This document shows, piece by piece, positions 36,484 through 57,424 of a stretch of DNA of 64,000 bases (within the stretch, counting starts at the first letter, position 1; each line of letters opens with the position of its first letter). The DNA is taken from contig JAEEHQ010000036.1 of assembly GCA_016280915.1 (NCBI GenBank), positions 29,269-93,268 of the forward strand, written 5' to 3'. The position numbers and the translations under genes are program-made. The stretch is from Bacteroidales bacterium (GTDB lineage Bacteria > Bacteroidota > Bacteroidia > Bacteroidales > P3). The notes under the pieces were generated by a model that did not search any database, was not told the origin of the DNA, and worked only from the letters and a program-made list of their open reading frames with translations.

Positions 36484-39400
36484 TTAGTTTCTTATCACTT
36501 TGGTTGTCTGGGTGAGCACTTCGCCCGATTTGGTGGTGAGCATCACGCGGGCTACGTATATGCCATTTGCCACTTGGTCACCATTGTCTGAACGGAAATC
36601 CCACGGTATAGTAATCACACAGCTGTTGTCCAAAAGGGTAGGGGTGAACTGTCGCACGTGGCTGCCTCGTATATCGTAGATATCCACGATAGCCGACTGC
36701 ACCGCGTTGGTCAAGTTGTGCTCGATGCGTAGAGTGGTGCGGTCGTGGGCGGGGTTGGGTGCCGAAGTGAATTGACCAATGCGTTTCGTTCGGTCGTTGA
36801 CCACCACAAAGTCAATGGTGGCGCTACCCGAATAGTTGAAAATGTTCCAGCATTTCACCGTCAAGGTGTGTGGACCCTCTTCCAGTTTGCCCAGGGTGTA
36901 GTACACCTCGCCGTTGCGGCTGTCCTCAATGTCGGGCTCATAAAAATCGTTGAGGGTGACGGTGCTATAGGGGTTGCCGTCGATGACGGCGGTGATATCG
37001 TGTCCGATGCCGCTACCTGCCGCATTGATGCCGACAGAGTCGGATAGGTGGGCATAAAGTGTGGGTGTTTCGTTGGTGATTCCGCCATTGCGGAAATGGG
37101 TGTCGTTGATGTAAAGCTCCACGGTGGGGTGCAATTCCGTCAGCTCGGTTTCTTCGTTGAAACCGCCAAACATAATGTTGCCATACTGACCGGTGGCATC
37201 ATTGTTGTCGCTTCGGGCGTAATGCGACAGCTTGGCGTAGTCGTAGTGGTATGCCACGTCCCTCGGTATGATAAAGGAATAGGTGAATCGGCCGTTGCTC
37301 ACCATTTCTCGACCTTTGTAGAGTATGTTCTTCTGTTGGTAGAATTCCACCTCGGTGCTGTCGTTGTCGTTGGACAAGGTGTTACTTTTCACCTCGCGGT
37401 CAAAAACGATGGGGTAGATAGTACCGTTGAAATCCGATGCCAGTTCTCCGTCGCTGTTGCGTATCTCTCCTTCTACTGTCACGCGCGACAGCACCTCCAC
37501 CGAGTCTGTCACCCCGTCTTCCACATTGCGGCCGTTGATGCTGGTCACCACCACCTCTTTCTTGGGAATTGAAAGGTGCAAGGCGGGGTCGCCCAGCAAG
37601 GCGATACAATGCGACACCTGTACTTCGTTCTTGGCGATGCGCAGCGCATCGCCGATAGTGTTGTTGGGGTCGAGTGCGTAGATGCAAGCCCTACTGTTGA
37701 AAGGGTGTGAGTGGTGGATAGGGCGGGCGGCCGTGAGAATGCCGATGCCGGCCGCATCGGCCAACAAGAATGCCTCGGCACCACAGATGTCGTCCACCAG
37801 GTCGAAATGGCCGAATGAACAGGTGCTGGTGACAAAAAAAGTCAACCTGTCTCTATTGGTGTATTTGTCAATATCGGTAAACTCCATGTAGCGTTCTGTA
37901 CCGATATATTTGTCCGAGCCATGGCCAATGTAATTGAGTAGTAGAGTACCGTAGTTGAGGCGCTGTCGCAGCGCGTTGTTGACCTCGGGGTAATAGCTGC
38001 CGTCGGCTCCCGACTGCTGTAGGTAGGCGTCGGCAAAGATCTTGTCGATGTTTAGTTGGGGGTATTTCGCTTGAATGCTCCGAGCCATCTTTTCGGCATC
38101 GCTGGCAAAGACCGAGTCGCTGGGCACCGAGGGGTCAGCATCGTCAGCCAGCAGGGTCACGTAGTTGCGCCAGTCGCCTCGCACATTGCTTTGCTCGAAA
38201 TCTCGCTTGGTCATGTACCCCTCAATCTTGTCGACTAAATGCTCGGCTTCCGCAACTGTCTTAGCGGGAAGTCTGCCGATTCCCACCGAGAGCCTCCCCT
38301 CGTAAACACCTGCTGTGCCTTCCTCCAGATAGCCGTATATGTCGTCGCTGGGATAGGCCGCAATGTCGGTCAGCACCACGCTGGGATATTGGTAGGTGAC
38401 AACGGTACGTTGGCTCGAACCCATTATGTTGCGATTGTCGTATGTGCCTTTGCCAAAGAGCAGTAGGTAACGCGGACTCATCCCTGCGGGATCTTTTTTG
38501 CGCATGTTCAACATCATTTGGCGGATAGCCACAGGGTCGGGGCGGCCGGAAGAGTATTCGTTGAACACCTCTTCTTGGTTGACTACCAGAACATTCATGC
38601 CTTCCTCGGCTCTATGCAGATTGGCCAATTTCTCGGCCTGAGTCCTGAAGTCTTTGTGGGTAACAATGACGTAGTCAGCTACCTCTGTACCATGAATGTC
38701 TTGATTAACAATATTTTCTATGCCTGCTGGATGTAATGCATCTTCTTTTGTAAAGGCAATGAATGTCTTGGGCGCATCGGTGGGAGCAGCAAAGCTAAAC
38801 CCATTGTTGCCAGATGTTTGAATGGCAATCTCGCAGGGTTGGCTGGGTTCGGTCACATCCCAAAGACGCATCCCACTGGTGTAGCCTGTGCCAACAAACT
38901 GGCTCACAGAACCTTCCTGTATCTGTTGTTTGTTGCGTATGAATTGCTGTCCACTCAAGTATGATAGTGGCACGATGGCGTTCAGCTCAATAAAGTCGAG
39001 GTAACCGGTTGCGCTGTTCTCTCTGGGGGTGTAGGCGATGTTCAGGCTCACCTCATTGCTGTTGGTTGAAGAAAGGTTTCGCTTGAAAATGCTGTAGGTG
39101 GTGTTGGCGTCAAAGTTGTTGGTCCATGTTTCACTACCCGATTGAAAACCAAATTGTCCCGAATAATCCGATAGATGTGCCAGGCCGTATCGGGCTTCGA
39201 TGGTGCCTGCGCTGGGGGCCGATGGCAGGAGTAGCGTGTAGGAGCGGGAGGAGAAGCTGCTGGTGAATTTGTCCGCCATCCATAGTTCGCCACCCTCTAC
39301 AGGGTTAATTTTGTCTTCGTGAAGGAGTGCAACGGCAGTATAAATGCTGATGGAATTGGATGTGTTGGGGGTGAAAGTAGGGTGCTGAAGTCGCAAAGAG

Positions 39401-39861
39401 GAGTCAATCTGCGTGTAGGTAGTTGTGAGGTAATAATAATTATAGTTCGCATACGCATGCGAACTATATTCAAATAGTTGGTCGCTATTCATGTAGCGCC
39501 ACACGCTGGGTCCCTCGCCATAGAAGAGGATAAAGTCGTCCATCTCAAAAGTACCGTTTCCGTTCATGTCCACCACCTCTATGGCAGCAGCCACCATATC
39601 GTCGGGATGGGCGGCTTTATTGCTCACCGCGAGCATGCCTCCTGGGGAACCGAAAAGAGCAATGTTGCTGCACGGTGTTCCGTAGAGGCTTGCCACATCG
39701 GCAGTAGTGATGATGTAAACCCCTGTCGAAGCAACAGGTATCTTATACCATTCTCCCGATGCCAATTTAGAGTGTTCGGCATATTGGCTCTGGGCAACAG
39801 CCTCTGTGCCACACAGAAGCCCAGCAACGAGGATGCAGGTGAGTAGTTCTCTTATGCGCAT
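36484..39861 (-). CDS. porU: T9SS C-terminal signal peptidase / sortase PorU
   Basis: 1125 aa. The N-terminus 'SKLASGEWYKIPVASTGVYIIT', a gingipain-like peptidase C25 core, and its own CTD-like C-terminus ('...IYDIRGSHVRQF...NGIYVARV...') are present. Confidence 0.85.
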   Translation of the reverse strand: MRIRELLTCILVAGLLCGTEAVAQSQYAEHSKLASGEWYKIPVASTGVYIITTADVASLYGTPCSNIALFGSPGGMLAVSNKAAHPDDMVAAAIEVVDMNGNGTFEMDDFILFYGEGPSVWRYMNSDQLFEYSSHAYANYNYYYLTTTYTQIDSSLRLQHPTFTPNTSNSISIYTAVALLHEDKINPVEGGELWMADKFTSSFSSRSYTLLLPSAPSAGTIEARYGLAHLSDYSGQFGFQSGSETWTNNFDANTTYSIFKRNLSSTNSNEVSLNIAYTPRENSATGYLDFIELNAIVPLSYLSGQQFIRNKQQIQEGSVSQFVGTGYTSGMRLWDVTEPSQPCEIAIQTSGNNGFSFAAPTDAPKTFIAFTKEDALHPAGIENIVNQDIHGTEVADYVIVTHKDFRTQAEKLANLHRAEEGMNVLVVNQEEVFNEYSSGRPDPVAIRQMMLNMRKKDPAGMSPRYLLLFGKGTYDNRNIMGSSQRTVVTYQYPSVVLTDIAAYPSDDIYGYLEEGTAGVYEGRLSVGIGRLPAKTVAEAEHLVDKIEGYMTKRDFEQSNVRGDWRNYVTLLADDADPSVPSDSVFASDAEKMARSIQAKYPQLNIDKIFADAYLQQSGADGSYYPEVNNALRQRLNYGTLLLNYIGHGSDKYIGTERYMEFTDIDKYTNRDRLTFFVTSTCSFGHFDLVDDICGAEAFLLADAAGIGILTAARPIHHSHPFNSRACIYALDPNNTIGDALRIAKNEVQVSHCIALLGDPALHLSIPKKEVVVTSINGRNVEDGVTDSVEVLSRVTVEGEIRNSDGELASDFNGTIYPIVFDREVKSNTLSNDNDSTEVEFYQQKNILYKGREMVSNGRFTYSFIIPRDVAYHYDYAKLSHYARSDNNDATGQYGNIMFGGFNEETELTELHPTVELYINDTHFRNGGITNETPTLYAHLSDSVGINAAGSGIGHDITAVIDGNPYSTVTLNDFYEPDIEDSRNGEVYYTLGKLEEGPHTLTVKCWNIFNYSGSATIDFVVVNDRTKRIGQFTSAPNPAHDRTTLRIEHNLTNAVQSAIVDIYDIRGSHVRQFTPTLLDNSCVITIPWDFRSDNGDQVANGIYVARVMLTTKSGEVLTQTTKVIRN

Positions 39862-39960
39862 ATTCTATATAACTCTCTTTCTTGTTTTTTATTGCATTAG
39901 TTTTTTTGTGCCACCGAATTGTTTGTCTTGCTTCGTGTTAATGCTTGAGGTGCTAGTGCT

Positions 39961-40827
39961 TTATATTATTAGGTTCCCTTTGGCAATAATTCTGGAGCAG
40001 CCACCCACAAAGATGCGTCCCTTGTCGTCCAGTTGGGTCGTTACCACGCTGGGGCGTAGCATCGCTTCGCCTTGAATAAAGTTGCTTTCACCTGGTTGGG
40101 AGACAATGCCGTTTACGTGCAAATAGTGCCTCAGTGCCGCATTGGCTGTGCCTGTGGCCGACTCTTCGTTGACGCCATACAGGGGTGCAAAGTTCCGCAC
40201 ATGGGCCACGCTACTGTCGTTTGTCCCTCGGGTGAGGGCAAAGGCATGCACACCTACCACGTTTTTCTCGCGACTGTAGTCGCTCAGGGCATCCATGTCA
40301 GGGTGTAGCGCATTCAGCTCTTCAAGGCTTTCAACAGGTAGTATGATGTCAGGAAGTCCGGTAGAAACGATGGCTATCGGCAGCCGAGGAAGCATTGCCG
40401 TCATTATGCGGCATAGGCGCTCTACCTCTTCTGGGTTGTCTATGGTGGCTATTAGCTTTGGCTCTGCCATCTGCATCATCACCCTTTCTCCTATCTGTAC
40501 AGACAAATCGCCTGCAAGCGTGTGGTTTATGCATGTTTCGCCGTTGGGGGCCAAACCTTCTTGCCGCAGCACCCCAAACGTGGCAATCGTTGCGTGACCG
40601 CAGAGGTCCACTTCCCTCCGTGGGGTGAAATAGCGGGTGGTGTACTCGGTGGGACTTTTACATTGCACGAAGGCTGTCTCTGAGTAGCGCAACTCTGCCG
40701 CAACTTGCTGCATCAGCTCTTCTGAAGGGAAAGGTGCATCTTCTTGGCCCAGCAGCACAACACCTGCCGGATTGCCGCCGAAAGGTTGGTCGGTAAAAGC
40801 GTCTACAATAAAATAGCGGTATTCCAT
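39961..40827 (-). CDS. PhzF-family isomerase
   Basis: The ATG is at 40825-40827; the track start is the GTG one codon upstream. 'FIVDAFTDQPFGGNPAGVV...ELRYSETAFV...DLCGHATIA'. Confidence 0.85.
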   Translation of the reverse strand: MEYRYFIVDAFTDQPFGGNPAGVVLLGQEDAPFPSEELMQQVAAELRYSETAFVQCKSPTEYTTRYFTPRREVDLCGHATIATFGVLRQEGLAPNGETCINHTLAGDLSVQIGERVMMQMAEPKLIATIDNPEEVERLCRIMTAMLPRLPIAIVSTGLPDIILPVESLEELNALHPDMDALSDYSREKNVVGVHAFALTRGTNDSSVAHVRNFAPLYGVNEESATGTANAALRHYLHVNGIVSQPGESNFIQGEAMLRPSVVTTQLDDKGRIFVGGCSRIIAKGNLII

Positions 40828-41106
40828 CACTTATATTTTTTTATTCCATAACGCTATTTTCTGTTTTTTATTGTCCTCATGGTCTCCGTGTCCAAGGCTT
40901 TCCTTTCATAAACAATTGTGGTTTCGTAACTCTTGCACGATTGTGAAGGGATGGTGCGTGCTGTACGAAACTCATTGATTCTTACGTTGCGTGATTTGCT
41001 AATCCTGGTTGTTGCTTTAGCGTCTTGCCACAGAATTGGGTTCAGGGTGAAGAGCTGTTGGCTATTTGGGGTTGTGTCAAGGCATGGCCGCTTAGGCAAA
41101 AGAAAA

Positions 41107-41131
41107 GAGGGCGACCGTTGTGGCCGCCCTC
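41107..41131 (-). terminator. Rho-independent terminator of the giant cargo gene
   Basis: GAGGGCG pairs with CGCCCTC. On the minus strand it is followed by TTTTCTTTTG. Confidence 0.6.
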
Positions 41132-41163
41132 ACAAATAGGGTTAGTGTTCGTTGAAGTAAAGG

Positions 41164-44100
41164 TTACTTCACGATAAGTTTGCGAACGGCAGTTCCCTGC
41201 TTGCCAGTGACACGGACGAAATAGGTGCCTTGTGCATAGCCCTGCAGGTCTATGGTCACATTGTCGTTGTTGGCAGTAGTGTGGAACGTTTGGCGGCCGT
41301 TGATGTCTAGGATGGTAACCGTGGCTCCGTTTTCAATACCATTGAGGCTGACAACGTTGCTGGCGGGATTGGGGAAGAGTGTGAAATCGGCTGTGACAAC
41401 ATCGTCAATGCCTACAGGCTGCTGTTTGAAGAGGACCTCGATTTCGGTGTTCTCGTTGATCGTGAAGGTGTAGGGGTTGGTGAAGATGGTGTCGGTAGAG
41501 CCGGAGAACAGCCAGCCGTTGAAGAGGTATTCGGCTTCAGGAGTGGCGGTGATGGTCACTTCGCTGCCGGCATCGTATATGCCGTTGCCCGTGGCCTGAC
41601 CTTGGAAGGGATTGTAGTCTAACTGAAGAGTGTAGCGCTGGACAAAATTGGCAACAATGGCCATGTCGCTGTTGACCTGGAAGGTGTAGGGGTTGTCGGT
41701 GCTGAGGCGTTCTTCGCCGATATACCATCCGTCGAAGCGTGCAATGCCGTGGGTGGAGGCACTGACAGTGATACTCTGGCCTTCGGCCACTAGGGTGTCT
41801 CCTGAGGGTGATGGGTGTCCGAGGTTGTTGTCAGAGGAAGAAATGTTGACGGTATAGTAGACTATGTCTTGCTCGAAGACGGCAGTCAGGGTGATGTCGT
41901 TGTTGACAATGAAGGTGTAGGGGTTGTCTGTGCTCACCTGGGAGCTTCCGTCGCTCCAGCCCACAAAGTGGTAGCCGTCGTTGGCAGTGGCCGTTGCGGT
42001 GAAGGAACTGTTCTCGACAATCGAGGTCACTCCGGCAGGGCTGACAGAACCCATGGTGCTGTCGGAAGACAGCAGGGTGACGTCATAGTAGGTTGGTGGC
42101 AACCCGGTGGAGATGAGTCTGAGGTCGTCGATGTGGAAGTCGTTGTCGGTGTTGACGAGGACAGACTCACCATAGAAGGCGATGCGAATGGTCTGGCCCA
42201 TGAAGGAGGTCAGGTCGATGGCTACGGAGTCGGGGGTGTTGGACACAGAGTCAATCTGCACATCGGCATCTGCGCCGTGGCCAAAGGTGTAGAGAGGTGT
42301 CCATGTGGTGCCACCGTTGGCAGTGACCAATACCATGAAACGGTCGTCAGAACCAATGGAATCAATGGGTTCGGCGTTGTTGTATTTGGTCAGCGCATAG
42401 CGGAAGGAGAACTCGGCAGGAGTACTGAGTGTAAATGAGGGTGTTGCCAACCAACGGTAGTTGTTGTTGCCGTAGATGTTGCAGCGCAAGTGTGTCGACC
42501 CCATGGCATAGCTGTTGAGGGCGAAGATGTCGGAAGTGGCAGGTTCGCTGGTGACAGTGTTGGTGGAGTCGATGTAGCGGCCGCGGAACATATCCCAGCA
42601 GGGCAGATAGCCATTAGTGTATATGTTGCTGGTGCCAGCGGGAATGCTGCTAAAGTCCTCGGTCCAGGGGAGGGTGGTAATGGAAGCACAGAGTGTCTGG
42701 AAGGCAACGTTGATGGGAGCCGTGACGTTTCCGTCGGGACAGAGGGAACTGACGCTGACGGTGTAGTTAGTGGCAGGTGTCAGACCTGTAAGAGACAGGG
42801 TTTGGGAAGTGATGTCGGTGGTGTCGGTTCCGTTAACGACGATGCGGTAGTTGTTGTTGTTAGTGGTGTCGGTGATGGTGATGTCGACACTATAAGCAGT
42901 GATGTTGCTGACTGTAACAGCACCAGGACGATGGCAGTTGGGTGCGATGAGCACGCTGAAATCGTCAAGATAGAGACTTGTGTAGCTTCCGTTATAGCGG
43001 AGGGCGATAAGGCCGGTGGCGTTGTTGGGGAAGCGAGTCTCAAAGGTCTGGTAGGTGCTGCTGGAGGTATTGGTGCAGCTTTGCAGCGACACGAAGGAGC
43101 TGGCGTTGGTGGGGTCGGTCAAATAGCCGACTTCGACACCTGCGGTGCTGGAGCTAGTCTTCATCATGCTGAAAGTGAAGAGGAGGTTGGCAAGGCTGTC
43201 GGCAAAGGGCGGCAGGGCAAGAATAGTAGCTGCGCTAGAAGAGCTGTAGAAGGTGAGGCACTGGCTGCCGCTGTTGGGATAGCTAGCATTGGTGTTGATG
43301 TAGGGGTAGTTGTCCGAGTAGCGGTTCAGTATGGTCCAGCAGGGGTCGTTGAAGGCACTGGTGGACGAGGAGTAGGTGGCCCCGGTGTAACCCTCGAAGC
43401 CTTCGCTCCATGGCAGCATGGCAGTGGTGATGAGGCTGCAGGCGGTGGTGAAGGTGGCTGAGGAACTGTTGCTGACTTCGTTGCCAGAGCAGATGGTAAC
43501 AGCCGTGAGAGCATAGGCGGTGTTGTAGGTGAGACCGGTGAGTGTAATGGTGTTTCCAGTAACCTCTATGCTGTCGGTAGGTGAGGTGAAGAGGCGGTAG
43601 TGGTTGGTGTTGTTGGCATCGGTAAGGGTAACCGTGGCACTGGTGTCGGTGATGTTGCTTACAGTAATGACAGGTGAGCTGCATACGGGTGCATAGTCAA
43701 CTTCAATATCGTCGACCCACCACCAGTAGTTGGCGTTGTTCAACTGTGAGATGGCAATGCGTGACCCCGCGGGAGCACCGGCAAAGTATACTTCCACTTG
43801 TTGATAGGTGGTGTAGTCTGCGCAGTTAAACGAAGCGGTCTGGACAAACGAGCTGCTGTCGGTGGGGTTGGTCAGATAGCCCACGCGGAGAAGTCCGGGG
43901 TTGGTGCCGTTCTCAGCCACAATCCACATGGAGAGTCTGAGGCGCTGGATGCTGTCTTCGAAATAGGGAAGGACGGAGAAGTTGGGGGTCTGGCAGTTGC
44001 CGTTGAAACGAAGGGCTTTGCTGCCGCTGTGGACGCGGGAAGAGGTGCTGACGACGATTACCTTGCTGTTGCTGTTGCTGTTGGCTATGTAGCTCCAGCA

Positions 44101-47100
44101 GGGCAGGTTGTTGGTCAGGTCGGTGGCCATATTCTCGAAACCTTCGTTCCAAGGCAATGAATCGATGGCATCGCAGGGGGTGCTGAACTGAGCAATGAGG
44201 GGGAAGTGGCTGTAGCCGTCGGCGCAGTTGGCCACGACAGCAACTGTATAGTTGGTGTTGGCCGATAAGCCGGTGAGATTAACCAAAGTGTCGGTAGCAA
44301 TGAGGGTGTCGACTATGGTGCCGTAAGCGAGCGCAATGGTATAGTTGCCAGTGGTCTGAGCTCCGTTGATGTGCAACTGGGCCGAGGTGGTGGTTAGGTT
44401 GCTTAAGGAGATGCTGGCAGGTCTTGCACAAGAGGGTGTCACGCGCAACTCGACATCATCGAGGTAGAAACCGCGGTACTGGTCGGCATAGAAACGGATA
44501 GCCACAAAACGTCCAGTGTCGCTGTATTGGCTAAGGTCGGTAGTGTAGTAGTTCCAGGAGTTGTTGAAAGAAACGGTTTCGAGGACGGAGAAGGTAGCGG
44601 TGTCGGTCGGGTCGGTCATGACGCCGATTTTGACATCTGCAGTGTAGCTGCCAGCCGTTTTGGCAAAGTAGGAGAACTGCAGGTTGCTAAGGCTTTCCAC
44701 TTCGGGCAGAACGAGGTATTCGATGGTCTGGCTGGTGTTGAAGTAAACCACCTTGGAAGAGGTGCCCCCAAAGCCTGTGGTGCTATAGATCTGGGGGTAG
44801 GAGGTGTATGAGGTTCCATAGTTGTGGCGTGTCCAGCAGGGAATGTCGTTCAGTGAGGTGGCGAAGCTTTCGAAATCTTCGGTGTAAGGCAGGTCGTTGA
44901 CGGTCAGGACGGCACAGGCGGTACGCGTCTGGGTAGTGAGGGCGGAGGTGTAGCCGCCGTCGTAGCATTCGGTGCGTACTTCGATGGTGTAAGGACGGTT
45001 GGGCATCAAGTAGTTGAATGTCCAAGAGGTGTCTGTGGAAGAGGCGGAGTCGACGATGGTGTCGTTGTGGAAGATTCGATAGTCGTAGGAGTTGCCTTCG
45101 TTGCCGGAGACGCTGACGGTGATGGATGTGGTGGTCACATCAGACACGGCAATGCTGGTGGGCATTTCGCAGGAAGGCAGTGCATGAACGTCCACTTCGT
45201 CCACAAACCAGTACCAGTTGGTGGAGGCTGAGTTGTGACGCATGGCCATGCGGGAACCCGTGGGAGCATTGACAAAGGATACCAGTTTCTGTTGGTATTC
45301 ATTGTTGAAATCGCTGTAGTCATAGTGCTGCACGCTGACGAAGGTGGTGGTGTCGGTTGCTGAGGTCAGGTAACCTACGTCGAAGGAACCGCTATTACTG
45401 GATGTGCCTTCGGGGCGTGTTTGGAACTGGAGTTCGAGGCCGCTGATATCGTCGGAGAACTCAGGCAGTACGACATAGGTGCTGCGGTTGGCAACACCAG
45501 GATAGAACACCAAGCTGTAGCCGGAATCGCCATAACGGTAGCTGGAACCGCTCAGCGACATGTGGGCTCCGGGGTTACTCTTGATGAGACCCCAGCAGGG
45601 TATCATCTCGCCAACCATTTCGTTGGGATATGAGGTGAAGAGGCTGGCGTAGCTGTTGAAGTCTTCGTGCCAAGGCAGGGTGCTGATAATGTCGCAGCCG
45701 GTGCGGAAGCTGACGGAGGTGGGGTCGGTCATGGTGTAGTCGTTGCAGATGGTGCGGACGCTTACGGTGTAGGCGGTGCTGGGGGTAAGGTCGGTCATTT
45801 GGTAGATGGTATCATACCATTCCACGCTGTCGGTGGCCGAAAGGTAAATCATGTAGTGATTGATGCCGTTTGCATCGTTGATGATGATATCGGCACTGGT
45901 GGTGCTGATGTTGCTGGCTACCACAGAAGAAGGACTGGTGCAGCTAGGTAGGGCACTGACGGTGATGTCATCGATGTAGCTGTAGCTTGTAGAGCCACCG
46001 GCATAGCGGATGGCGATAAGGCCGGAATATTGGTTGGCAAAGGTGGTCTGGCAATGTTCCCAAGCCGAAGAGCTGGCAGGGGTGATTGTCTGCAATGCAA
46101 CAAACGAGTTGGCGTCCATCGGGTTGCTGATGATGCCAACCTGTACGGGCTGTCCGTAAAGCCAGAAATCGAGCATAAGGTTGTTCGGGGTCTCCTCAAA
46201 GTGAGGCAGCGAAACGATGGTGGCAGGGCTGCTGTAACTGTATATGGCCAGACTGTTAGAGTCTGTGTGTGCCTGGCTGGTGCTGAAGTACGGGTAGCTA
46301 CTGCTGTAGCGGTCGAGGACGCCCCAGCAGGGGATGTTCATGGCGCTGCTGCTCGAAGAGTAGGAACTGCCGGCGTAGCCTTCAAAGCCTTCGAAGAAGG
46401 GCAGGCTGTCGGTAGGAAATGCCGTGCAGGCGGTCTGGAACTGCAGGCTGAGCGTGCTGGTGCTGCCACCGTCGCTGCAGTTGGCCGTCATGCTGACAGT
46501 GTAGAGCGTGTTGGGCGTCAGCGAGTAGAAGGGAACCACGGTGCTGAAGGCCTCGATGCTGTCCACCATGGCAGAGTCGTTGTAGACTTTCACGGTGTAG
46601 CTGATGGCATCGCCTATGGTGTCTATGATGTGCAACTCGGCTTCTTGGTCGGTGATGTTCTGCATGACAATGTCCGTAGGACGGGCACAAGAGGGAGTGG
46701 TGAGCACGGTGATGTCGTCGATGTAGGCAGTGCCGTAGCTCGAACCGTTGTAACGGAAAGCGATATAGCCGGAGGTGATACCGTCGAATGTCACATCGTA
46801 CATGTTCCAACTGTTGGTTGTGGCGGGGGCGCAGTTCTGCACAGCCACAAAGGTGTTGGGGTCGTTAGGATTGCTCATGACACCCACCTGCATGGACTGT
46901 CCGTAGAGCCAGAAATTGAGCATGAGGCTGCTGGGACTGTCCTCGAAAAGGGGCAGGGCCACAACGGTGGGGGTAGTGTTGGAGGTATAGATGGCCATAC
47001 TGTTGTTGCCGCTGTGGTGCTGAGAGGTGGAGAAGTAGGGGTAGTTTTGGCTGTAGCGGTTGGTAACAGCCCAGCAGGAGAGGTTCATGGCCGTGCTCGA

Positions 47101-48789
47101 AGATGCGGAGGATCCGGCATTGTAGGATTCAAACCCCTCAACGAAAGGCAGGCTGCTGTTGGCAATGGCCACGCAGGCTGTGCGGAACTGCACTGTCAGG
47201 GGATTGTAGGCGCTGCCGTCGCTGCAGTTGGCCGCCATGCTGACGGTGTAGTCCGTGTTGGGTGTGAGGGAGGTGAACGTCACCACAGTGTCCTGTACTT
47301 CCATGCTGTCAACCAGCAGGGTGTCGTTGTACAGTTTTACGGTGTAGTTGGCAGCAGTACCAACGGTGTCGAAGATAAACAGCTCGGCCTGGTCGGAACC
47401 GATGTTGCGCATGGTGATGTACGAAGGTCTGTCGCAGGAGGGAGACTCAAACACGCTGATGTCGTCAACGCGTATGTTGCCATAGTTGCCGTAGTAGCGG
47501 ATGACCATACGGCCCGAGGCATTGGGGCTCATCGGGGTTTCAAAAAGCTCCCAGTTGCCGGTGGCTCTGGGCACGAGCGTGGACACCTCGGTGTAGGTGC
47601 TGGTGTCGGTGGCATCGGTCATGTAGCCTACACCCAGATAGGTGTTGCTGTTGTCCGTCGTCATCCACAGTCCTAAAGAGAGGCTGGATAGGGTCTCGGT
47701 AAAAGTGGGCAGGATGATGAAGGTGGGATAGGAGGTGGTGTGGCCATAGATGCGCAGGGCATTGCCAGAGGCATCGCTGTCGTGGTTCCAAGAGTTCTGG
47801 AGGAAGGTATAGTCGTTGTAGTTGCCTATCACATCCCAGCAGGGCAGGTTGGTGATAGAGGAAGTGTTGCTGGAAGCAGAGGTACCCGTGTAGGAGTTGA
47901 AGTTCTCGTTCCAAGGCAGTGCACTAATGGAACCACAGGCGGTACGGAACGAAACTGTGCTGAAGTTGGAGGTGTCGTCAATGCCGCAGATGGCACGCAC
48001 ACGGACGGTATAGGCCGTGTTGGCGTTCAGATTGGTGAAAACATAGGTGGAGTCGTATACCTCGTTGACAAAAGAACCATTGAGATACAGAGCCCAGCTG
48101 CTCTCTCCGTTGCGGGAGTTCCAGCTGATAGTGGCATCGCTAGGGGTGATGTTGGAGGCCGTAAGGTTGGAGGGCGTGAGGCAGATGTCGCTGCCAGAAG
48201 TATAGGTGAAAGTCACCTTGGGAAGGAAGGCCTGAGTATAGTTGGGACCTGTGGCGGAGCTAGTAGAGGTGCCGTATATATTGCCAGCGGCAGCATGGCT
48301 TTGGATAGCACCGTAGAAATGGCTATAGGGACAGCCCGAACCGGCTGCCGTATTCATGACGCTGATAAGGAGGTTGCCTCCACTGTAGGTGTAGGGGTCG
48401 GTCAATGAGATTTCCCAGCGTCCGTTCACCACGGAACAGGTGCCAGTCCAAGCAGCCCGGGTGGAGGCCGGCATCTTCCATGGCATGGAAGAATCAAAAG
48501 TGGTGTCGCTTACTTCGGCAATCCTCAGTTCCAGATTAGAAGTCCAGCTTTCGTCATCGTCGGCGTAGAAGGTCAGACCGGTAATGGTGCTACCAGCCAT
48601 CGCATTCAGTAACCGTGCCGGATAAATAAACTCGTTCCGGAACCGAGAATCGTTGTAGAAGCCGTGTATAGGTATGTATGAGTTGGTCGAAGTGCCATTA
48701 CATACCTGTAACGAGTCTTGGGCGCTCAAGGTCATTGGTAGCAACAATGACAAGAGCAGGGTTGCAAAAATTACTTTTCTTTTAATCAT
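41164..48789 (-). CDS. Giant (2541-aa) T9SS-secreted modular surface protein
   Basis: Signal peptide MIKRKVIFATLLLSLLLPMTLSAQ. Eight tandem modules of about 250 aa follow, each an Fn3-like segment plus a MAM / cleaved-adhesin / choice-of-anchor-J-like beta-sandwich. Three InlB-B-repeat-like units come next. The protein ends in a T9SS CTD, 'FTLFPNPASNVVSL...VTILDINGRQ...GTYFVRVTGKQGTAVRKLIVK'. Confidence 0.9.
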   Translation of the reverse strand: MIKRKVIFATLLLSLLLPMTLSAQDSLQVCNGTSTNSYIPIHGFYNDSRFRNEFIYPARLLNAMAGSTITGLTFYADDDESWTSNLELRIAEVSDTTFDSSMPWKMPASTRAAWTGTCSVVNGRWEISLTDPYTYSGGNLLISVMNTAAGSGCPYSHFYGAIQSHAAAGNIYGTSTSSATGPNYTQAFLPKVTFTYTSGSDICLTPSNLTASNITPSDATISWNSRNGESSWALYLNGSFVNEVYDSTYVFTNLNANTAYTVRVRAICGIDDTSNFSTVSFRTACGSISALPWNENFNSYTGTSASSNTSSITNLPCWDVIGNYNDYTFLQNSWNHDSDASGNALRIYGHTTSYPTFIILPTFTETLSSLSLGLWMTTDNSNTYLGVGYMTDATDTSTYTEVSTLVPRATGNWELFETPMSPNASGRMVIRYYGNYGNIRVDDISVFESPSCDRPSYITMRNIGSDQAELFIFDTVGTAANYTVKLYNDTLLVDSMEVQDTVVTFTSLTPNTDYTVSMAANCSDGSAYNPLTVQFRTACVAIANSSLPFVEGFESYNAGSSASSSTAMNLSCWAVTNRYSQNYPYFSTSQHHSGNNSMAIYTSNTTPTVVALPLFEDSPSSLMLNFWLYGQSMQVGVMSNPNDPNTFVAVQNCAPATTNSWNMYDVTFDGITSGYIAFRYNGSSYGTAYIDDITVLTTPSCARPTDIVMQNITDQEAELHIIDTIGDAISYTVKVYNDSAMVDSIEAFSTVVPFYSLTPNTLYTVSMTANCSDGGSTSTLSLQFQTACTAFPTDSLPFFEGFEGYAGSSYSSSSSAMNIPCWGVLDRYSSSYPYFSTSQAHTDSNSLAIYSYSSPATIVSLPHFEETPNNLMLDFWLYGQPVQVGIISNPMDANSFVALQTITPASSSAWEHCQTTFANQYSGLIAIRYAGGSTSYSYIDDITVSALPSCTSPSSVVASNISTTSADIIINDANGINHYMIYLSATDSVEWYDTIYQMTDLTPSTAYTVSVRTICNDYTMTDPTSVSFRTGCDIISTLPWHEDFNSYASLFTSYPNEMVGEMIPCWGLIKSNPGAHMSLSGSSYRYGDSGYSLVFYPGVANRSTYVVLPEFSDDISGLELQFQTRPEGTSSNSGSFDVGYLTSATDTTTFVSVQHYDYSDFNNEYQQKLVSFVNAPTGSRMAMRHNSASTNWYWFVDEVDVHALPSCEMPTSIAVSDVTTTSITVSVSGNEGNSYDYRIFHNDTIVDSASSTDTSWTFNYLMPNRPYTIEVRTECYDGGYTSALTTQTRTACAVLTVNDLPYTEDFESFATSLNDIPCWTRHNYGTSYTSYPQIYSTTGFGGTSSKVVYFNTSQTIEYLVLPEVESLSNLQFSYFAKTAGSYTADVKIGVMTDPTDTATFSVLETVSFNNSWNYYTTDLSQYSDTGRFVAIRFYADQYRGFYLDDVELRVTPSCARPASISLSNLTTTSAQLHINGAQTTGNYTIALAYGTIVDTLIATDTLVNLTGLSANTNYTVAVVANCADGYSHFPLIAQFSTPCDAIDSLPWNEGFENMATDLTNNLPCWSYIANSNSNSKVIVVSTSSRVHSGSKALRFNGNCQTPNFSVLPYFEDSIQRLRLSMWIVAENGTNPGLLRVGYLTNPTDSSSFVQTASFNCADYTTYQQVEVYFAGAPAGSRIAISQLNNANYWWWVDDIEVDYAPVCSSPVITVSNITDTSATVTLTDANNTNHYRLFTSPTDSIEVTGNTITLTGLTYNTAYALTAVTICSGNEVSNSSSATFTTACSLITTAMLPWSEGFEGYTGATYSSSTSAFNDPCWTILNRYSDNYPYINTNASYPNSGSQCLTFYSSSSAATILALPPFADSLANLLFTFSMMKTSSSTAGVEVGYLTDPTNASSFVSLQSCTNTSSSTYQTFETRFPNNATGLIALRYNGSYTSLYLDDFSVLIAPNCHRPGAVTVSNITAYSVDITITDTTNNNNYRIVVNGTDTTDITSQTLSLTGLTPATNYTVSVSSLCPDGNVTAPINVAFQTLCASITTLPWTEDFSSIPAGTSNIYTNGYLPCWDMFRGRYIDSTNTVTSEPATSDIFALNSYAMGSTHLRCNIYGNNNYRWLATPSFTLSTPAEFSFRYALTKYNNAEPIDSIGSDDRFMVLVTANGGTTWTPLYTFGHGADADVQIDSVSNTPDSVAIDLTSFMGQTIRIAFYGESVLVNTDNDFHIDDLRLISTGLPPTYYDVTLLSSDSTMGSVSPAGVTSIVENSSFTATATANDGYHFVGWSDGSSQVSTDNPYTFIVNNDITLTAVFEQDIVYYTVNISSSDNNLGHPSPSGDTLVAEGQSITVSASTHGIARFDGWYIGEERLSTDNPYTFQVNSDMAIVANFVQRYTLQLDYNPFQGQATGNGIYDAGSEVTITATPEAEYLFNGWLFSGSTDTIFTNPYTFTINENTEIEVLFKQQPVGIDDVVTADFTLFPNPASNVVSLNGIENGATVTILDINGRQTFHTTANNDNVTIDLQGYAQGTYFVRVTGKQGTAVRKLIVK
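42106..48189 (-). repeat. Intragenic tandem array of eight modules of about 750 nt
   Basis: Module boundaries are marked by 'ICLTP', 'PSCDRP', 'PSCARP', 'PSCTSP', 'PSCEMP', 'PSCARP', 'PVCSSP' and 'PNCHRP' at aa 201, 449, 698, 947, 1204, 1451, 1700 and 1949. Confidence 0.8.
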
Positions 48790-50200
48790 TTAGTTTTGTT
48801 ATTAGTTAGTAAATTTATCTTCTTCGTTAGTTAGTTTCTTAATAATCACATACTTTTTTTGTCCCAGCCATCACCACTAGGGTCATTCCATCGGAGTTTT
48901 TGTCTGAAGATGGAGTCCGTTTAACCGCAGAAGTGGGTGGCGGATGATAATCTTATTTGCGAATCCAGCCTTCATATTATTCGCAAAAGTGATTAAACGT
49001 ATCCTTTGAAAAAATATTGTATCCTTTGAAAAAAAAATACACTTGTGGATCCAACATCGAATGGAAGCAATGTTGTCTAGCCATGACATAATATCTTTTT
49101 CCTTTTTTTTTGAAGTCGATTTGCATCGGTTGTTGTGTCATTTTTCAAATGCAATATATTTTTATTGTTACATTATTTTTGCTTTGTTTGTGTTAGCTGT
49201 TGCTCTCATATTATTGTAACGTTTCAAAAGCAAGAATAACTACAACGGAGTTCTTTTTTTTTACCATAGTCCTTACTCGTAAAACAGACTAAACGGAGTT
49301 CCTTTCCCCATAGACCCAACCCGTAGAAATTTTTCTCTCGTTGAGCTGCCCGATGTCCAACACCAAACCACCCTTTCCCATCTCCCGCCATCCAATCTCT
49401 CGCCTAAGCTGTCAGTGCTTCCTAGCGATAGCCAATTTGGGCGGGCGCGCCGCTCCGCCAGCATCTTTTTTGCCCCTTTAAAAAAAATCAACCTATCGGT
49501 AATAAGGTTGGTGTAAGTTGGCTATTTATATTACATTTGACCTATTTTTAGACTAGGTTTTATTTGTCATGTAAAAAATAAATATAAGTAAATTGTTGTT
49601 AGATAATTATTTAAATAAGGCCTCGTTTTATTGACTTGAATCTCGGCTGGAGGAGTGATGGAGATGATTTGTGTCTTTTTCGGAGGACATGCTTGCTAAG
49701 GGACAAGAGAAATAGTAGGATTTCATTGCGGGGGGTGGCTGATGGAAAACGGTTTGAACCGTTGTGCCACAGATGAGGAGTGGTGGCGGCATGCTGGGTG
49801 CGGCTCTTCAATGTATGGTTATTTTAGTCCCTTACCTCTTTAGGTTCGGTGAAGGCAGTCGAAGGCCCTTCGTTTGTTGGGGTCATTTCGGGGTTTGCAG
49901 ACTTGTTTGCCACCTAAAGAGGAGCCTGCCCATCCGGCGTTTCCCACGTTGCTTTGCGGTGGCGAAATGTGCTCTTAAAAGGGTCTTTCCCAGAGGCAAA
50001 TTTTGAAGCAAAAAGACCTTATTTTTTGTTTTTTGATAGCAAAAATGATGAAAAAAAACGATTCTTTGTATGCGTTGTTAAAAACTAAATTATTTGAAAA
50101 TCAAGCGTATGTATTTTTTTTTTAGAAGAATCGTGTTTATTTGATAAAAAAAGCGTAATATTGCCAATCAATTTTAGGCTCATTATATACTAAAATTTGC

Positions 50201-51208
50201 ATGATGAAAAAGTACAATAAAATAACTCTGCTTCTGTTGCTTCTGGTGCTGGGCATGCAGGGAGTAAAAGCACAAGACGTTGGATTCTCGCAGTTCTATG
50301 CCAATCCGCTGTACCTCAACCCTGCCTTTGCTGGTTCTAAGGTAGCACCGCGAATCTCTTTAACCTATCGCGCCCAGTGGCCTGGGCTCGTCAGTGCTTT
50401 TACTACTGTTAGTGGCTCTTACGACCAGTATATACCTGATTTGCATGGTGGTATTGGTGCCATCATTATATCTGACCGCCAGGGCGACCATGGCATTTTG
50501 GGAACCACCTCCTTGGGCGCTATGTATTCATTCCGTTTCAAGATCCATGAGGACATATTCGTCAACTTGGCCCTGCAGGCCTCTATCGTCAATACCAACC
50601 TTTCGTGGGATTTGAACAACCTGCGCTTTGGCGACCAAATTGACGCCAACAACGGTTTCGTCAACCAGACCTCTGCTACGGCTCCCGACCAGACCAGTAT
50701 CTTCTATCCTGACTTTGCTGCCGGTGGTATGGTCTATGGCCCTGCATGGTATGTCGGCGTGGCCGCCCACCACCTCAACCAGCCTAGCCAGGGCTTTTAT
50801 AGTGAGGACCCCGTTCCCATCAAGTTTTCTGCCAATGCAGGTGGTCTGATTAATATTTCGGAGGAGCGTCGTCGTCAGTCTTCCCTCGGTCTCGGCCAGC
50901 CGGTCATCTCCCCCAACTTCATCTATCAGTATCAGGGTGGTTTCCATTATTTCAACTATGGTCTCTATCTCGACTGGATGCCCTTCCTTGTGGGTGTGTG
51001 GTATCGCAATGGCATTGAGAACTCCGATGCTTTCATCTTTATGGTGGGTGTGCAGCAAGACCATTTCAAGATTGGCTATAGCTATGATGCAACCGTTTCA
51101 CAGCTGGCCAACAGCACGGCTGGTTCGCACGAAATCACCATCGGCATCCTGCTTCCTGCTCCCGAACAGAAGCATAAGATTAAGGCCATCCGCTGCCCGT
51201 CCTTCTAA
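50201..51208 (+). CDS. PorP/SprF-family T9SS membrane protein
   Basis: Signal peptide, then 'DVGFSQFYANPLYLNPAFAG', the family-defining N-terminal block. The rest has beta-barrel-like alternation. Confidence 0.85.
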   Translation: MMKKYNKITLLLLLLVLGMQGVKAQDVGFSQFYANPLYLNPAFAGSKVAPRISLTYRAQWPGLVSAFTTVSGSYDQYIPDLHGGIGAIIISDRQGDHGILGTTSLGAMYSFRFKIHEDIFVNLALQASIVNTNLSWDLNNLRFGDQIDANNGFVNQTSATAPDQTSIFYPDFAAGGMVYGPAWYVGVAAHHLNQPSQGFYSEDPVPIKFSANAGGLINISEERRRQSSLGLGQPVISPNFIYQYQGGFHYFNYGLYLDWMPFLVGVWYRNGIENSDAFIFMVGVQQDHFKIGYSYDATVSQLANSTAGSHEITIGILLPAPEQKHKIKAIRCPSF

Positions 51209-51286: not shown

Positions 51287-52849
51287 ATGAAGATTTTAAA
51301 ATTCTCATTCCTTATGCTGGCATCTGCGCTGCTGCTCACGGCTTGTGGCGGTAGCAAGGATAAGTCTGAAACCACGGGTTGGAATCTGAATGATACCGAG
51401 TGGGGCGGCTTCGACCGTTCTTCCTATTCAGAACAGATTACTGGTCCCGGTCTCGTGTTCATCGAAGGCGGTTCCTTCCAAATGGGACGTGTAGCCGATG
51501 AGTCGCGCTTCTCATGGAACAACCTTGTCCACACAGTCACCGTCTCCTCTTTCTACATGGATGAGACCGAGGTCTCCAACATTTCTTATCGTGAGTTTGT
51601 CTATTGGATGAACCGCGCTTATGGTGAGGAGTATCCCGAGTTGGTCAAGAATATCTATCCCGATACTACCGTTTGGCGTTCCCGCCTCTCCTGGGTGGAG
51701 AACTTTGTTGAGAACTATTTCCAGTGCGCTATGTTCAACGACTATCCCGTTGTGGGCGTTACTTGGGAGCAGGCTTCTCAATATTGCAAATGGCGTACCG
51801 ACCGCGTCAACGAGAAAATCCTCGTGGATGCCGGTATCATCGAGCTGGCTCAGAGCGAGCTGACGGGTGCTGACGCTTTCCAAACCGATGTCTATTTGGC
51901 TGGTTTGTATAAGGGCGAGGGTGCCGGTGTGCCCGACCTCAATCCTGCCAGCGGTGGCGAGAGCCGTAATGTGCGCCGTTCCGACGGTATCCTCCTCCCC
52001 AACTACCGTCTGCCTACCGAGGCTGAGTGGGAGTTTGCAGCTCTGGGTATGATTGGCAACACCTACGACGAGCGTATCGTTGAGCATAAGACCTATCCTT
52101 GGGCTGGTCAGAGCGTCCGTTCTGCCAACAAGAAATACTATGGTCAGTTCCTGGCTAACTTCAAGCGTTCGCGTGGCGATGCCATGGGTGTGGCAGGCAA
52201 CCTCAACGATGGTTGGGAGTACACCGCTCCTGTTAGATGGTATTTCCCCAACGACTACGGTCTGTATCACATGGCTGGCAACGTGGCTGAGTGGTGTGGC
52301 GATGTGTATCGTAAGGATGCTAACCCCATCGGTGCCGATGACCAGAACCCCTTCCGTGGCAATGTCTATCAGTATGTTGCTATGAGCGAGGATGGTGAGG
52401 AAGCCGCTATCGACGAAGCTACCGGCAACCTGATTTATCAGAACGTTCCCGACGACATGAACCGTCGCAACTATCGTCAGGCCGACAATATCAACTACCT
52501 CGATGGTGACTGGAATTCCAGCATCTACGACTTCGAGAGCAAGGAGCCCACTTCTGCTTCCGGCTGGCTGCGCGAGTACGACGACGAAGAGGAGGCTGAT
52601 GAAGAGGTTACCCGCACCAATGATGAGCAGACCAACCAGATGTATCACCGTTCCGACAGTCTTGATCGTAAGAACATTACTTCTATGATCAACAACCGCG
52701 TTCGCGTGGTGAAGGGTGGTAGTTGGCGCGACCGTGCTTACTGGATGCAGAGCGGCACCCGTCGTTACTACGACCAAGATCGCAGCACCGCTTGGATTGG
52801 TTTCCGTTGTGCTATGGACCGCATGGGTTCCCGTACCGGTGCTAAGTAA
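51287..52849 (+). CDS. PorK/GldK/GldJ-family T9SS lipoprotein (FGE-sulfatase / SUMF1-like fold); the N-terminus looks GldJ-like
   Basis: Lipobox 'LLLTAC'. 'TGWNLNDTEWGGF', 'GLVFIEGGSFQMG', 'FYMDETEVSN', 'YPVVGVTWEQASQYCKWRT' and 'HMAGNVAEWC'. Confidence 0.78.
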   Translation: MKILKFSFLMLASALLLTACGGSKDKSETTGWNLNDTEWGGFDRSSYSEQITGPGLVFIEGGSFQMGRVADESRFSWNNLVHTVTVSSFYMDETEVSNISYREFVYWMNRAYGEEYPELVKNIYPDTTVWRSRLSWVENFVENYFQCAMFNDYPVVGVTWEQASQYCKWRTDRVNEKILVDAGIIELAQSELTGADAFQTDVYLAGLYKGEGAGVPDLNPASGGESRNVRRSDGILLPNYRLPTEAEWEFAALGMIGNTYDERIVEHKTYPWAGQSVRSANKKYYGQFLANFKRSRGDAMGVAGNLNDGWEYTAPVRWYFPNDYGLYHMAGNVAEWCGDVYRKDANPIGADDQNPFRGNVYQYVAMSEDGEEAAIDEATGNLIYQNVPDDMNRRNYRQADNINYLDGDWNSSIYDFESKEPTSASGWLREYDDEEEADEEVTRTNDEQTNQMYHRSDSLDRKNITSMINNRVRVVKGGSWRDRAYWMQSGTRRYYDQDRSTAWIGFRCAMDRMGSRTGAK

Positions 52850-55507: not shown

Positions 55508-55816
55508 CCATTCGGACTTCCACTCACTTTCTTCACATCAACAATCTCAAAGCTGTCACCTAAGTTGTCAGTCAGGTAACAGCATTTTCAACAATTCCTT
55601 TGCAGCTTCCATGTCATTTTGTTTTTCCAGCAAAGATATTGTTTTTTTCTAATTTGTAAACACAGGGCTATGCAGGTGAACCTCATTGTACCCCACGCTG
55701 CAATTGTCGTATCATGTGGGGCTATTGTTATTTAATGATTTAGACACTATTCCTTTAAAAAAGCAAAATGATGGATTGTATTTTTTTATAAAACTTGTTA
55801 TTTTAAAAAAAATTAG

Positions 55817-55824
55817 TATATTTG
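55817..55824 (+). promoter_or_regulatory. TAnnTTTG -7 motif (TATATTTG)
   Basis: About 18 nt upstream of the ATG at 55842. Confidence 0.5.
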
Positions 55825-55841
55825 CAAAAAAAAATACAACC

Positions 55842-57392: not shown

Positions 57393-57424
57393 GGTCAGCA
57401 TAAATGTTCAAAATAGTTTATATT

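Follow-up and report, generated by a model that had tools for sequence, protein, structure and literature searches.

A 2541-residue modular protein with a type IX secretion sorting domain in a Bacteroidales genome: domain architecture, probable adhesive role and exchange of its locus

What is a protein of 2541 amino acids, encoded close to porU and porV, two genes of a type IX secretion system (T9SS), built of, what would it do at the cell surface, and how did its gene come to stand there? These questions are raised by a stretch of 64,000 nucleotides from an uncultured Bacteroidales bacterium (positions 29,269 to 93,268 of contig JAEEHQ010000036.1, assembly GCA_016280915.1), referred to below as the window. 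An original prediction, made from the sequence without database searches, had described the gene product as a modular T9SS cargo and a plausible giant adhesin or glycan-binding surface fibre. According to our analysis it is probably a non-enzymatic, T9SS-delivered, fibrillar binding protein (adhesin) of the cell surface; the earlier reading is still an interpretation, and the best-supported one, of the domain composition, the folds and the C-terminal domain (CTD). The protein is an ordinary member of a large uncharacterised family. What is new is that, between porP and porU, its gene and the neighbouring phzF constitute a lineage-specific insertion, and that sequence comparison indicates a recent movement of this cassette between two diverged lineages by homologous recombination.

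Domain architecture and predicted folds

The ORF list and the translation bear out a single minus-strand open reading frame (ORF) of 7.6 kb, and the layout that had been read from it is recovered as well. From the N- to the C-terminus the protein comprises a predicted signal peptide, a 177-aa beta-sandwich that we call the tip, eight modules (M1-M8) each consisting of an Fn3 domain followed by a choice-of-anchor-J (CAJ) domain, three InlB-B-type repeats, and a type-A T9SS CTD (Table 1). Together these parts cover nearly the entire length, and there is no catalytic family among the Pfam and NCBIfam matches of the protein. Compared by sequence with the chains of the PDB, the whole protein yields no match at E<=0.01.

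The eight consecutive modules of about 250 aa that had been predicted are confirmed by alignment and hidden Markov models (HMMs), with a period of ~249 aa; their limits were placed with regular expressions and alignment, each module starting with its Fn3 domain. Pfam fn3 (PF00041) recognises eight stretches with 133.6 bits (cut-off 25), in agreement with the Fn3-like segments described before, and NCBIfam choice_anch_J (NF038128) recognises seven stretches with 145 bits (cut-off 30) when the whole protein is scanned. The sandwiches had been typed as MAM, cleaved-adhesin or CAJ-like: the CAJ assignment holds by HMM and the fold is near all of these, but Pfam MAM (PF00629) remains sub-threshold (sandwich 2 scores 17.8 bits and sandwich 5 scores 19.2, cut-off 26.4; no match for the others), and Pfam Cleaved_Adhesin (PF07675) gives no match either at E<=0.1 for the whole protein or at E<=1 for the isolated sandwiches. 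The short motifs noted in the modules are largely as described. The sandwich start, LP[WFY]xExF, and the CW motif occur in all eight modules (PCW in seven, SCW in M2), but the opening P-x-C-x-x-P, which had been ascribed to every module, is found in seven (M1 has D-I-C-L-T-P), and the terminal DD, as [VLI]DD[IVFL], likewise in seven, with VDEV in M4.

Across 48 aligned modules from this protein and its relatives, four Cys residues are invariant, located at the Fn3 start, at the end of the Fn3 F-strand, at the Fn3 C-terminus, and in the PCW motif of the sandwich. Judging from the Fn3 topology they probably pair as C1-C2 and C3-C4, i.e. two disulfides per module. The modules are otherwise well diverged from each other, with pairwise identities of 23-56% at the amino acid level, M2 and M3 being the closest pair (56%).

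Structure prediction for one module, which had been recommended as a check, yielded a confident result. The AlphaFold2 (AF2) model of module 5, based on the 48-module alignment, has a predicted local distance difference test score (pLDDT) of 94.1 and a predicted TM-score (pTM) of 0.83; it is all-beta and consists of a 7-strand Fn3 domain (residues 8-85 of the module) and a jelly-roll sandwich. The pTM value for this two-domain unit suggests a defined arrangement of Fn3 and CAJ in the model. Foldseek searches returned K1, K2 and K3 of Lys-gingipain (Kgp), which are cleaved-adhesin domains, as the best single-domain matches of the CAJ domain (TMt 0.59-0.68, root-mean-square deviation (rmsd) 3.0-5.2 A, 15-18% identity), followed by carbohydrate-binding module (CBM) family CBM22 (TMt 0.58-0.60) and a MAM domain, while the top multi-domain match is SGBP-B, a surface glycan-binding protein (SGBP) of B. 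thetaiotaomicron (PDB 7kwb). The fold predicted for the CAJ sandwich thus lies near the jelly rolls of cleaved adhesins, of MAM and of CBMs.

The tip is the least-known part of the protein. A domain of about 175 aa had been noticed at this position and left unassigned; it is now modelled by AF2 (pLDDT 93.4) as a 13-strand sandwich with neither a helical nor an alpha/beta catalytic core. Scanned in isolation against Pfam and NCBIfam, it matches no family at E<=1. Pfam PF28033, which occurs in the precomputed annotations of many relatives and is absent from our local Pfam copy, may model this domain. Against PDB folds the tip gives weak, generic jelly-roll matches (TM <0.5), among them baseplate proteins of phages, Cwp84 with its lectin-like domain, CBM32, legume lectins and carbohydrate esterase domains. 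In a library of viral structures one protein of an uncultured phage (BFVD A0A6J5NL19) matches with TMq 0.81 and rmsd 2.9 A, and many tail-fibre-like proteins match the fold more weakly. The modelled tip thus resembles sandwiches of the lectin/CBM type and phage tail proteins in their distal parts. An exhaustive search of a library clustered at 50% revealed 7410 representatives of the tip family at E<=1e-3, of which 4295 reach E<=1e-10, and it is from this search that the family size is taken; a word-indexed profile search with the tip alignment returned just 19 mostly fragmentary proteins. The invariant residues of the tip are Pro, Tyr, Asn and Leu. The domain is often present in several copies within one protein, and its contexts include a dockerin-bearing protein (P0268) and a minimal protein of 327 aa with Fn3 and CTD matches (P0158). 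The family is large, without a model in the Pfam and NCBIfam copies searched and without a close solved structure; its presence on dockerin proteins and on a phage protein as well makes it a good candidate for a new family of binding modules.

Both ends of the protein carry features consistent with export and surface sorting. The predicted cleavage by signal peptidase I (SPase I) after Ala23 would expose Gln24, and an N-terminal Gln at this position agrees with the Bacteroidetes Q-rule (PMC5837995); the N-terminus is consistent with an SPase I signal. The three InlB-B-like repeats proposed earlier correspond to Pfam PF18998 (Flg_new_2), which matches three stretches with 71.5 bits (cut-off 23.6). 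The T9SS CTD, described beforehand as canonical, is recognised by TIGR04183 with 52.9 bits (cut-off 23) over aa 2471-2541, i.e. to the last residue, and by Por_Secre_tail (PF18962) with 47.4 bits (cut-off 27) over aa 2471-2540. By eye we distinguished the putative cleavage site QPVG↓IDDV, LFPNPASNVVSL, GTYFVRV and KLIVK, which match the consensus for the cleavage site and for motifs B, D and E; in the cargo proteins of Prevotella intermedia the type-A consensus comprises the cleavage site P-T/G-I, followed by motifs B, D (GxY) and E, the last with its basic residue (PMC11969387). The putative PorU cleavage site, P-V-G↓I, falls at G2460↓I2461. No type-B CTD is found among the NCBIfam matches at E<=0.1; the CTD models there are that of type A, with 52.9 bits, and that of type C, which stays sub-threshold with 19.3 bits (cut-off 40).

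The motif D-(S/T)-(A/I/L/V/M/T), known as a site of O-glycosylation in Bacteroidota (PMC8550257), occurs 32 times, compared with 14.8 +/- 3.6 in shuffled sequences. Seventeen of these sites are in Fn3 domains, and 45 of the 48 aligned Fn3 domains of the protein and its relatives have at least one. The Fn3 consensus itself may account for some of the excess. The overall composition is extreme, with 12.6% S, 12.5% T, 7.5% N and 0.7% K. We also observed that GC content rises to 55-56% between positions 42,000 and 48,000 of the window, compared with ~45-52% nearby, with a plus-strand GC skew of +0.24 to +0.32; this anomaly of the gene probably results from the Ser/Thr/Asn-rich, Lys-poor composition of its product.

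Proposed function and alternative explanations

On the basis of these features we propose the following course of events. The protein would be exported by the Sec pathway and cut by signal peptidase I after Ala23, whereupon Gln24 would be converted to pyroglutamate. In the periplasm it would fold into ~21 beta-sandwich domains, with two disulfides in each module and O-glycosylation at the D-(S/T)-(A/I/L/V/M/T) sites both being probable. The type-A CTD would then take it through the T9SS translocon to PorV, and PorU would cut off the CTD near G2460↓I2461 and join the new C-terminus to a surface glycan of the lipopolysaccharide type, as suggested by analogy with Porphyromonas and Prevotella; the PorU sortase and the PorV shuttle encoded nearby are the expected processors of such a cargo. 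The product would be a C-terminally anchored stalk some tens of nm long, composed of three B-repeats plus eight Fn3-CAJ modules, with the tip jelly roll at its distal end, and it would bind in a multivalent manner via the tip as well as the CAJ jelly rolls of all eight modules. Fibrillar adhesins as a class combine stalk repeats, an adhesive domain and an anchor. Tandem Ig-like repeats for a stalk and the surface anchor are present here (eight Fn3 domains, three B-repeats, CTD); the putative adhesive domains would be the CAJ and tip sandwiches, whose predicted models are similar to adhesins, CBMs and lectins, a likeness of fold alone.

Comparison of orthologues bears on the roles of the individual modules. 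Orthologues at 73-74% identity have kept all eight modules, and those at 55-56% identity (P0004-P0006) have seven, the missing unit being the one at the M2/M3 position (45,949-47,442 in the window). Since the loss falls at the most similar pair, the number of modules would seem to change by in-register duplication or deletion. Domains at equivalent positions in orthologues are 57-94% identical, as opposed to 23-56% for paralogous modules, and the ratio of nonsynonymous to synonymous substitution rates (dN/dS), calculated against the 74% orthologue (synonymous divergence, dS, ~1), is 0.09-0.25 in every domain, so that each domain is under purifying selection. Individual maintenance of the modules argues for distinct roles rather than for interchangeable spacers, and CAJ domains that are mutually diverged yet each conserved among orthologues suggest several distinct specificities. 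As for the ligands, our best guess, by analogy, is glycans of plant cell walls, of mucin or of other microbial surfaces in the ruminant gut. Glycans are favoured by the CBM, SGBP and lectin fold relatives, by the dockerin-linked paralogue of the tip, and by the origin of relatives from rumen metagenome-assembled genomes (MAGs); the source habitat of the present genome is probably the rumen as well.

Several points weigh against this interpretation. The residues conserved across the CAJ modules (LPW-E-FE, PCW, DD) look structural and not ligand-contacting. When the sandwiches are scanned alone, only three of the eight (2, 5 and 8) pass the CAJ cut-off, the remaining five being assigned to this type through their clear homology to those three. 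The signal peptide and the PorU cleavage site were both assigned by eye only, and the habitat was deduced from the titles of the relatives' database records. Finally, the closest solved relatives, the adhesin domains of gingipains, are known as binders of proteins, for example haemoglobin and matrix proteins, rather than of glycans.

A serious alternative to glycans, if on balance an unlikely one, keeps the same delivery and architecture and takes proteins or whole cells to be the ligands, as for a haemagglutinin or a co-aggregation adhesin resembling the HagA and gingipain domains of Porphyromonas gingivalis. The rank of Kgp K1, K2 and K3 among the single-domain fold matches of CAJ agrees with it, as does the similarity to MAM, a protein-interaction module that is matched weakly in sequence (E ~1e-3) and also in fold, and some relatives possess a genuine Cleaved_Adhesin domain (P0057, 96.9 bits). 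Our protein, however, has no Pfam match of that kind and shares only 15-18% identity with the Kgp domains, CBM22 and SGBP-B score equally well, the tip family is also paired with dockerin, and the apparent habitat is rich in plant fibre. More improbable is a passive glycosylated coat or spacer, i.e. an S-layer-like or glycocalyx fibre with no specific ligand that shields the cell from phages, protozoa or enzymes. The O-glycosylated S-layer proteins of Tannerella forsythia, delivered by T9SS, offer a precedent, and the Ser/Thr/Asn-rich composition and the roughly twofold excess of O-glycosylation motifs over shuffles, mostly in Fn3 domains, would suit such a role; but that excess may be partly the Fn3 consensus, and a spacer needs neither eight divergent sandwiches conserved position by position nor a conserved distal tip that recurs in more than 4000 proteins.

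The tip also bears on the proposal of a cryptic enzyme or enzyme scaffold, e.g. with a glycoside hydrolase or protease in the N-terminal domain, which the lack of any family match for this domain in the libraries searched and the weak fold matches to the Cwp84 cysteine protease (lectin-like domain) and to carbohydrate esterase domains might bring to mind. We regard it as very improbable, as the matched parts are non-catalytic sandwich domains (TM <0.5), the model is a plain 13-strand beta-sandwich lacking a catalytic core, and invariant Pro, Tyr, Asn and Leu make no catalytic set. There is hardly any chance that the eight-module array is a mis-assembly or a decaying pseudogene. Short-read metagenomes do often mis-assemble repetitive genes, and the original prediction had itself named an assembly artefact as an outcome that would overturn it, but the modules are far from identical in protein sequence, and the sole long DNA repeat within the gene is 300 nt at 69% identity. 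The exact 2541-aa protein is present on four contigs (JGI/NCBI), and the same length recurs in at least ten members of its >=90% cluster, which come from different samples and assembly pipelines. These observations exclude an assembly artefact for practical purposes, and the intact 7.6-kb frame with dN/dS of ~0.17-0.23 speaks against decay. A few cluster members are 2523 aa long, which fits a start at Met19 that truncates the signal peptide (48,735-48,789); such calls come from some gene callers, and the ATG at 48,789 yields the complete signal. We therefore retain the surface adhesin as the probable identity of the gene product.

Genomic setting and exchange of the locus

Downstream of the giant gene, phzF, porU, porV and ispF follow on the same strand; phzF is the only gene between the giant ORF and porU/porV, as had been stated, according to the gene annotation of the window (Table 1). 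A PorP/SprF-family gene and a gene for a GldJ/PorK-like lipoprotein lie upstream and diverge from it. In at least 16 distant loci with PorU 59-62% identical to ours (including L017, L019-L022, L024, L026-L028, L030-L032, L035, L036 and L038), porP and porU are immediate, divergent neighbours some 0.3-1 kb apart, without phzF or the giant gene, which in the window lie in the corresponding interval 39,961-50,200. The cassette of phzF and the giant gene is present solely in closer lineages (PorU 73-100% identical). Given its absence from the distant loci and presence in the closer ones, the adjacency to porU/porV is a lineage-specific insertion and not a conserved operon.

The giant gene is probably monocistronic, as a strong terminator-like hairpin follows its stop codon. 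Co-transcription with porU/porV was considered and is unlikely, because of this hairpin and because the cassette is missing there in distant relatives. The strict Bacteroidetes promoter TAnnTTTG, with or without the upstream TTTG, was found neither in the 1.4-kb upstream region nor in the gap between the giant gene and phzF, and a search of the whole window with Rfam at gathering thresholds gave no RNA family.

Table 1. Features of the giant gene and its surroundings in the window (M, module; CAJ, choice-of-anchor-J domain)
Feature	Residues (aa)	Position	Strand	Evidence or remark
Whole gene, 2541 aa + stop codon		41164..48789	(-)	ORF list, translation; ATG start
Predicted signal peptide (MIKRK, hydrophobic core, LSA↓QD)	1-23	48721..48789	(-)	inspection only
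Tip beta-sandwich (177 aa)	24-200	48190..48720	(-)	AF2 model; without family model in the Pfam/NCBIfam copies searched
M1 Fn3	201-285	47935..48189	(-)	Pfam fn3, module alignment
M1 CAJ-type sandwich	286-449	47443..47934	(-)	homology to other modules; alone below NF038128 cut-off
M2 Fn3	450-541	47167..47442	(-)	Pfam fn3, module alignment
M2 CAJ	542-698	46696..47166	(-)	NF038128 31.3 bits alone; MAM E=0.003
M3 Fn3	699-790	46420..46695	(-)	Pfam fn3, module alignment
M3 CAJ	791-947	45949..46419	(-)	module alignment
M4 Fn3	948-1032	45694..45948	(-)	Pfam fn3, module alignment
M4 CAJ	1033-1204	45178..45693	(-)	module alignment
M5 Fn3	1205-1294	44908..45177	(-)	Pfam fn3, module alignment, AF2 model
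M5 CAJ	1295-1451	44437..44907	(-)	NF038128 49.7 bits alone; Foldseek Kgp K1/K2/K3, CBM22, MAM
M6 Fn3	1452-1539	44173..44436	(-)	Pfam fn3, module alignment
M6 CAJ	1540-1700	43690..44172	(-)	module alignment
M7 Fn3	1701-1786	43432..43689	(-)	Pfam fn3, module alignment
M7 CAJ	1787-1949	42943..43431	(-)	module alignment
M8 Fn3	1950-2034	42688..42942	(-)	Pfam fn3, module alignment
M8 CAJ, longest and most divergent	2035-2225	42115..42687	(-)	NF038128 30.8 bits alone; 23-28% identical to other modules; end of array
Three InlB-B-type (Flg_new_2) repeats	2234-2307, 2311-2384, 2386-2456	41422..42090	(-)	Pfam PF18998
T9SS type-A CTD	2461-2541	41167..41409	(-)	TIGR04183, PF18962
Intrinsic-terminator-like hairpin (10-bp stem, 8 GC pairs), then T tract		41097..41131	(-)	32 nt past stop, ahead of phzF
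porV		35215..36411	(-)	NCBIfam equivalog, 443 bits
porU		36484..39861	(-)	NCBIfam equivalog, 953 bits
PorP/SprF-family gene		50201..51208	(+)	divergent from giant gene
GldJ/PorK-like lipoprotein gene		51287..52849	(+)	divergent from giant gene
Recombined block, ~10.8 kb		39700..50500		identity profile against lineage-B contigs

The profile of identity between the window and three independently assembled contigs of a second lineage (B; the window belongs to lineage A), L001, L007 and L012, reveals a block of ~10.8 kb; it takes in porU at its 5' end, the whole of phzF and of the giant gene, the intergenic region upstream of the latter and the first ~300 nt of porP. The block is 96-100% identical to the lineage-B contigs and its flanks are 68-92% identical. 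The giant gene is 98.3-98.4% and phzF 97.6-98.4% identical in nucleotide sequence to both L001 and L007, and in L012 the giant protein is 98% and the phzF product 97% identical in amino acids over the part present. Comparison of the window with L001 gives a dS of 0.04 for the giant gene and 0.034 for phzF, compared with 1.34 for PorU, 1.41 for PorV, 2.6 for IspF and 1.64 for FloA in the flanks (77-84% nucleotide identity) and 0.43-0.64 for porP and the gldJ-like gene. Identity switches sharply at ~39,700, in the porU 5' end, and at ~50,500, ~300 nt into porP, and both switches are common to L001 and L007. The high identity of the block next to diverged flanks points to a recent transfer by homologous recombination. 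A chimeric assembly behind the mosaic was rejected: L001, L007 and L012 agree, the breakpoints of L001 and L007 coincide, and the alleles of these two differ from those of lineage A by ~1.7% (identity is ~98.2-98.4% with A alleles, 98.8% between the two and 99.3-100% among A alleles).

The transfer of an adhesin cassette, with breakpoints in porU and porP, suggests that strong, mobile selection acts on the specificity of surface binding among Bacteroidales of the gut and rumen. A bolder reading, which we regard as rather doubtful, is that the site between porP and porU is a place of exchangeable "cargo cassettes", where a complete giant lectin array of multiple specificities (the eight CAJ domains, each conserved but diverged from the others, and the tip) has been inserted and is swapped between species by homologous recombination, the conserved T9SS genes serving as arms; were this so, adhesive specificity would count among the traits that members of the rumen community trade horizontally. 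The separate part of it, no less doubtful to us, is that the tip domain represents a new carbohydrate-binding module family common to T9SS cargo, cellulosomal proteins with dockerin and phage tail fibres.

The neighbourhood shows some further features. Within the 1.4-kb non-coding region upstream of the giant gene, a stretch of ~510 bp (~49,430-49,940) is present in lineage A and missing from L001 and L007; it contains no ORF of 100 aa or more and has no Rfam match. A CTD protein of 506 aa encoded nearby (53,356-54,876, minus strand) is without a match in the lineage-B locus L001. Another CTD protein, of 486 aa (57,404-58,864, plus strand), has a Flg_new_2 repeat and a C-terminal half similar to the giant protein's (28-31%). 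Between these two cargo genes lies an ORF of 568 aa (55,686-57,392, plus strand) that matches no family.

Relatives and comparison with known systems

The original prediction had recognised no characterised protein with this eight-fold architecture. That none has been characterised agrees with our literature search for Fn3 plus MAM or CAJ adhesins of the T9SS, which returned annotation-level mentions alone, with no functional characterisation of the CAJ domain; the architecture itself is, however, common among uncultured Bacteroidales. A full-length search, in which 8000 candidates were scored, identified at least 329 homologues at E<=1e-10, nearly all of the named ones being from Bacteroidales MAGs and 1.7-4.4 thousand residues long, and in every one of the 45 homologues listed the module HMM detected between 4 and 12 full modules. 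The architecture has already been annotated automatically by NCBI (e.g. MBR3986311.1, a member of the >=90% cluster of our protein), and a 2025 study of P. intermedia by Ye et al. counted Fn3 plus CAJ "putative adhesins" among the common kinds of T9SS cargo (PMC11969387). A fully parsed Fn3-CAJ example, with four invariant Cys residues and a confident model, could seed structural and biochemical work on the CAJ class.

The P. intermedia putative adhesins share with the present protein the secretion route and the kinds of domain, namely Fn3, CAJ and a type-A CTD; they are known as an architecture class only, and the likeness is accordingly one of domain types. HagA of P. gingivalis and its gingipains Kgp and RgpA, in their haemagglutinin/adhesin regions (PDB 4itc, 3km5, 3m1h), also combine tandem jelly rolls with a type-A CTD and anchoring by PorU/PorV. 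Our protein differs from them in that its sandwiches lack a Cleaved_Adhesin HMM match and are each preceded by a Cys-stapled Fn3 domain, in that it has neither a protease domain nor evidence of inter-domain processing, and in its distinct tip and B-repeats. With MAM and CBM22 the CAJ domain has the beta-jelly-roll fold in common, and its E-x-F-E ... DD end motifs hint at the structural calcium site of this fold class, but it stays below the MAM HMM cut-off and matches no CBM family.

SprB and RemA of Flavobacterium johnsoniae are, like our protein, very large repetitive T9SS adhesins with a PorP/SprF-family gene nearby. Their CTDs are of type B, and gliding depends on their movement along the surface, whereas the protein described here has a type-A CTD and repeats of unrelated types. 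The SGBPs, such as SGBP-B, resemble it in that an Ig/Fn3-like stalk precedes a terminal beta-sandwich that binds glycans. SGBPs are, however, lipoproteins of ~400-500 aa encoded in polysaccharide utilization loci (PULs), while our protein is five times longer and probably T9SS-anchored, and the neighbours examined are T9SS and housekeeping genes rather than those of a PUL.

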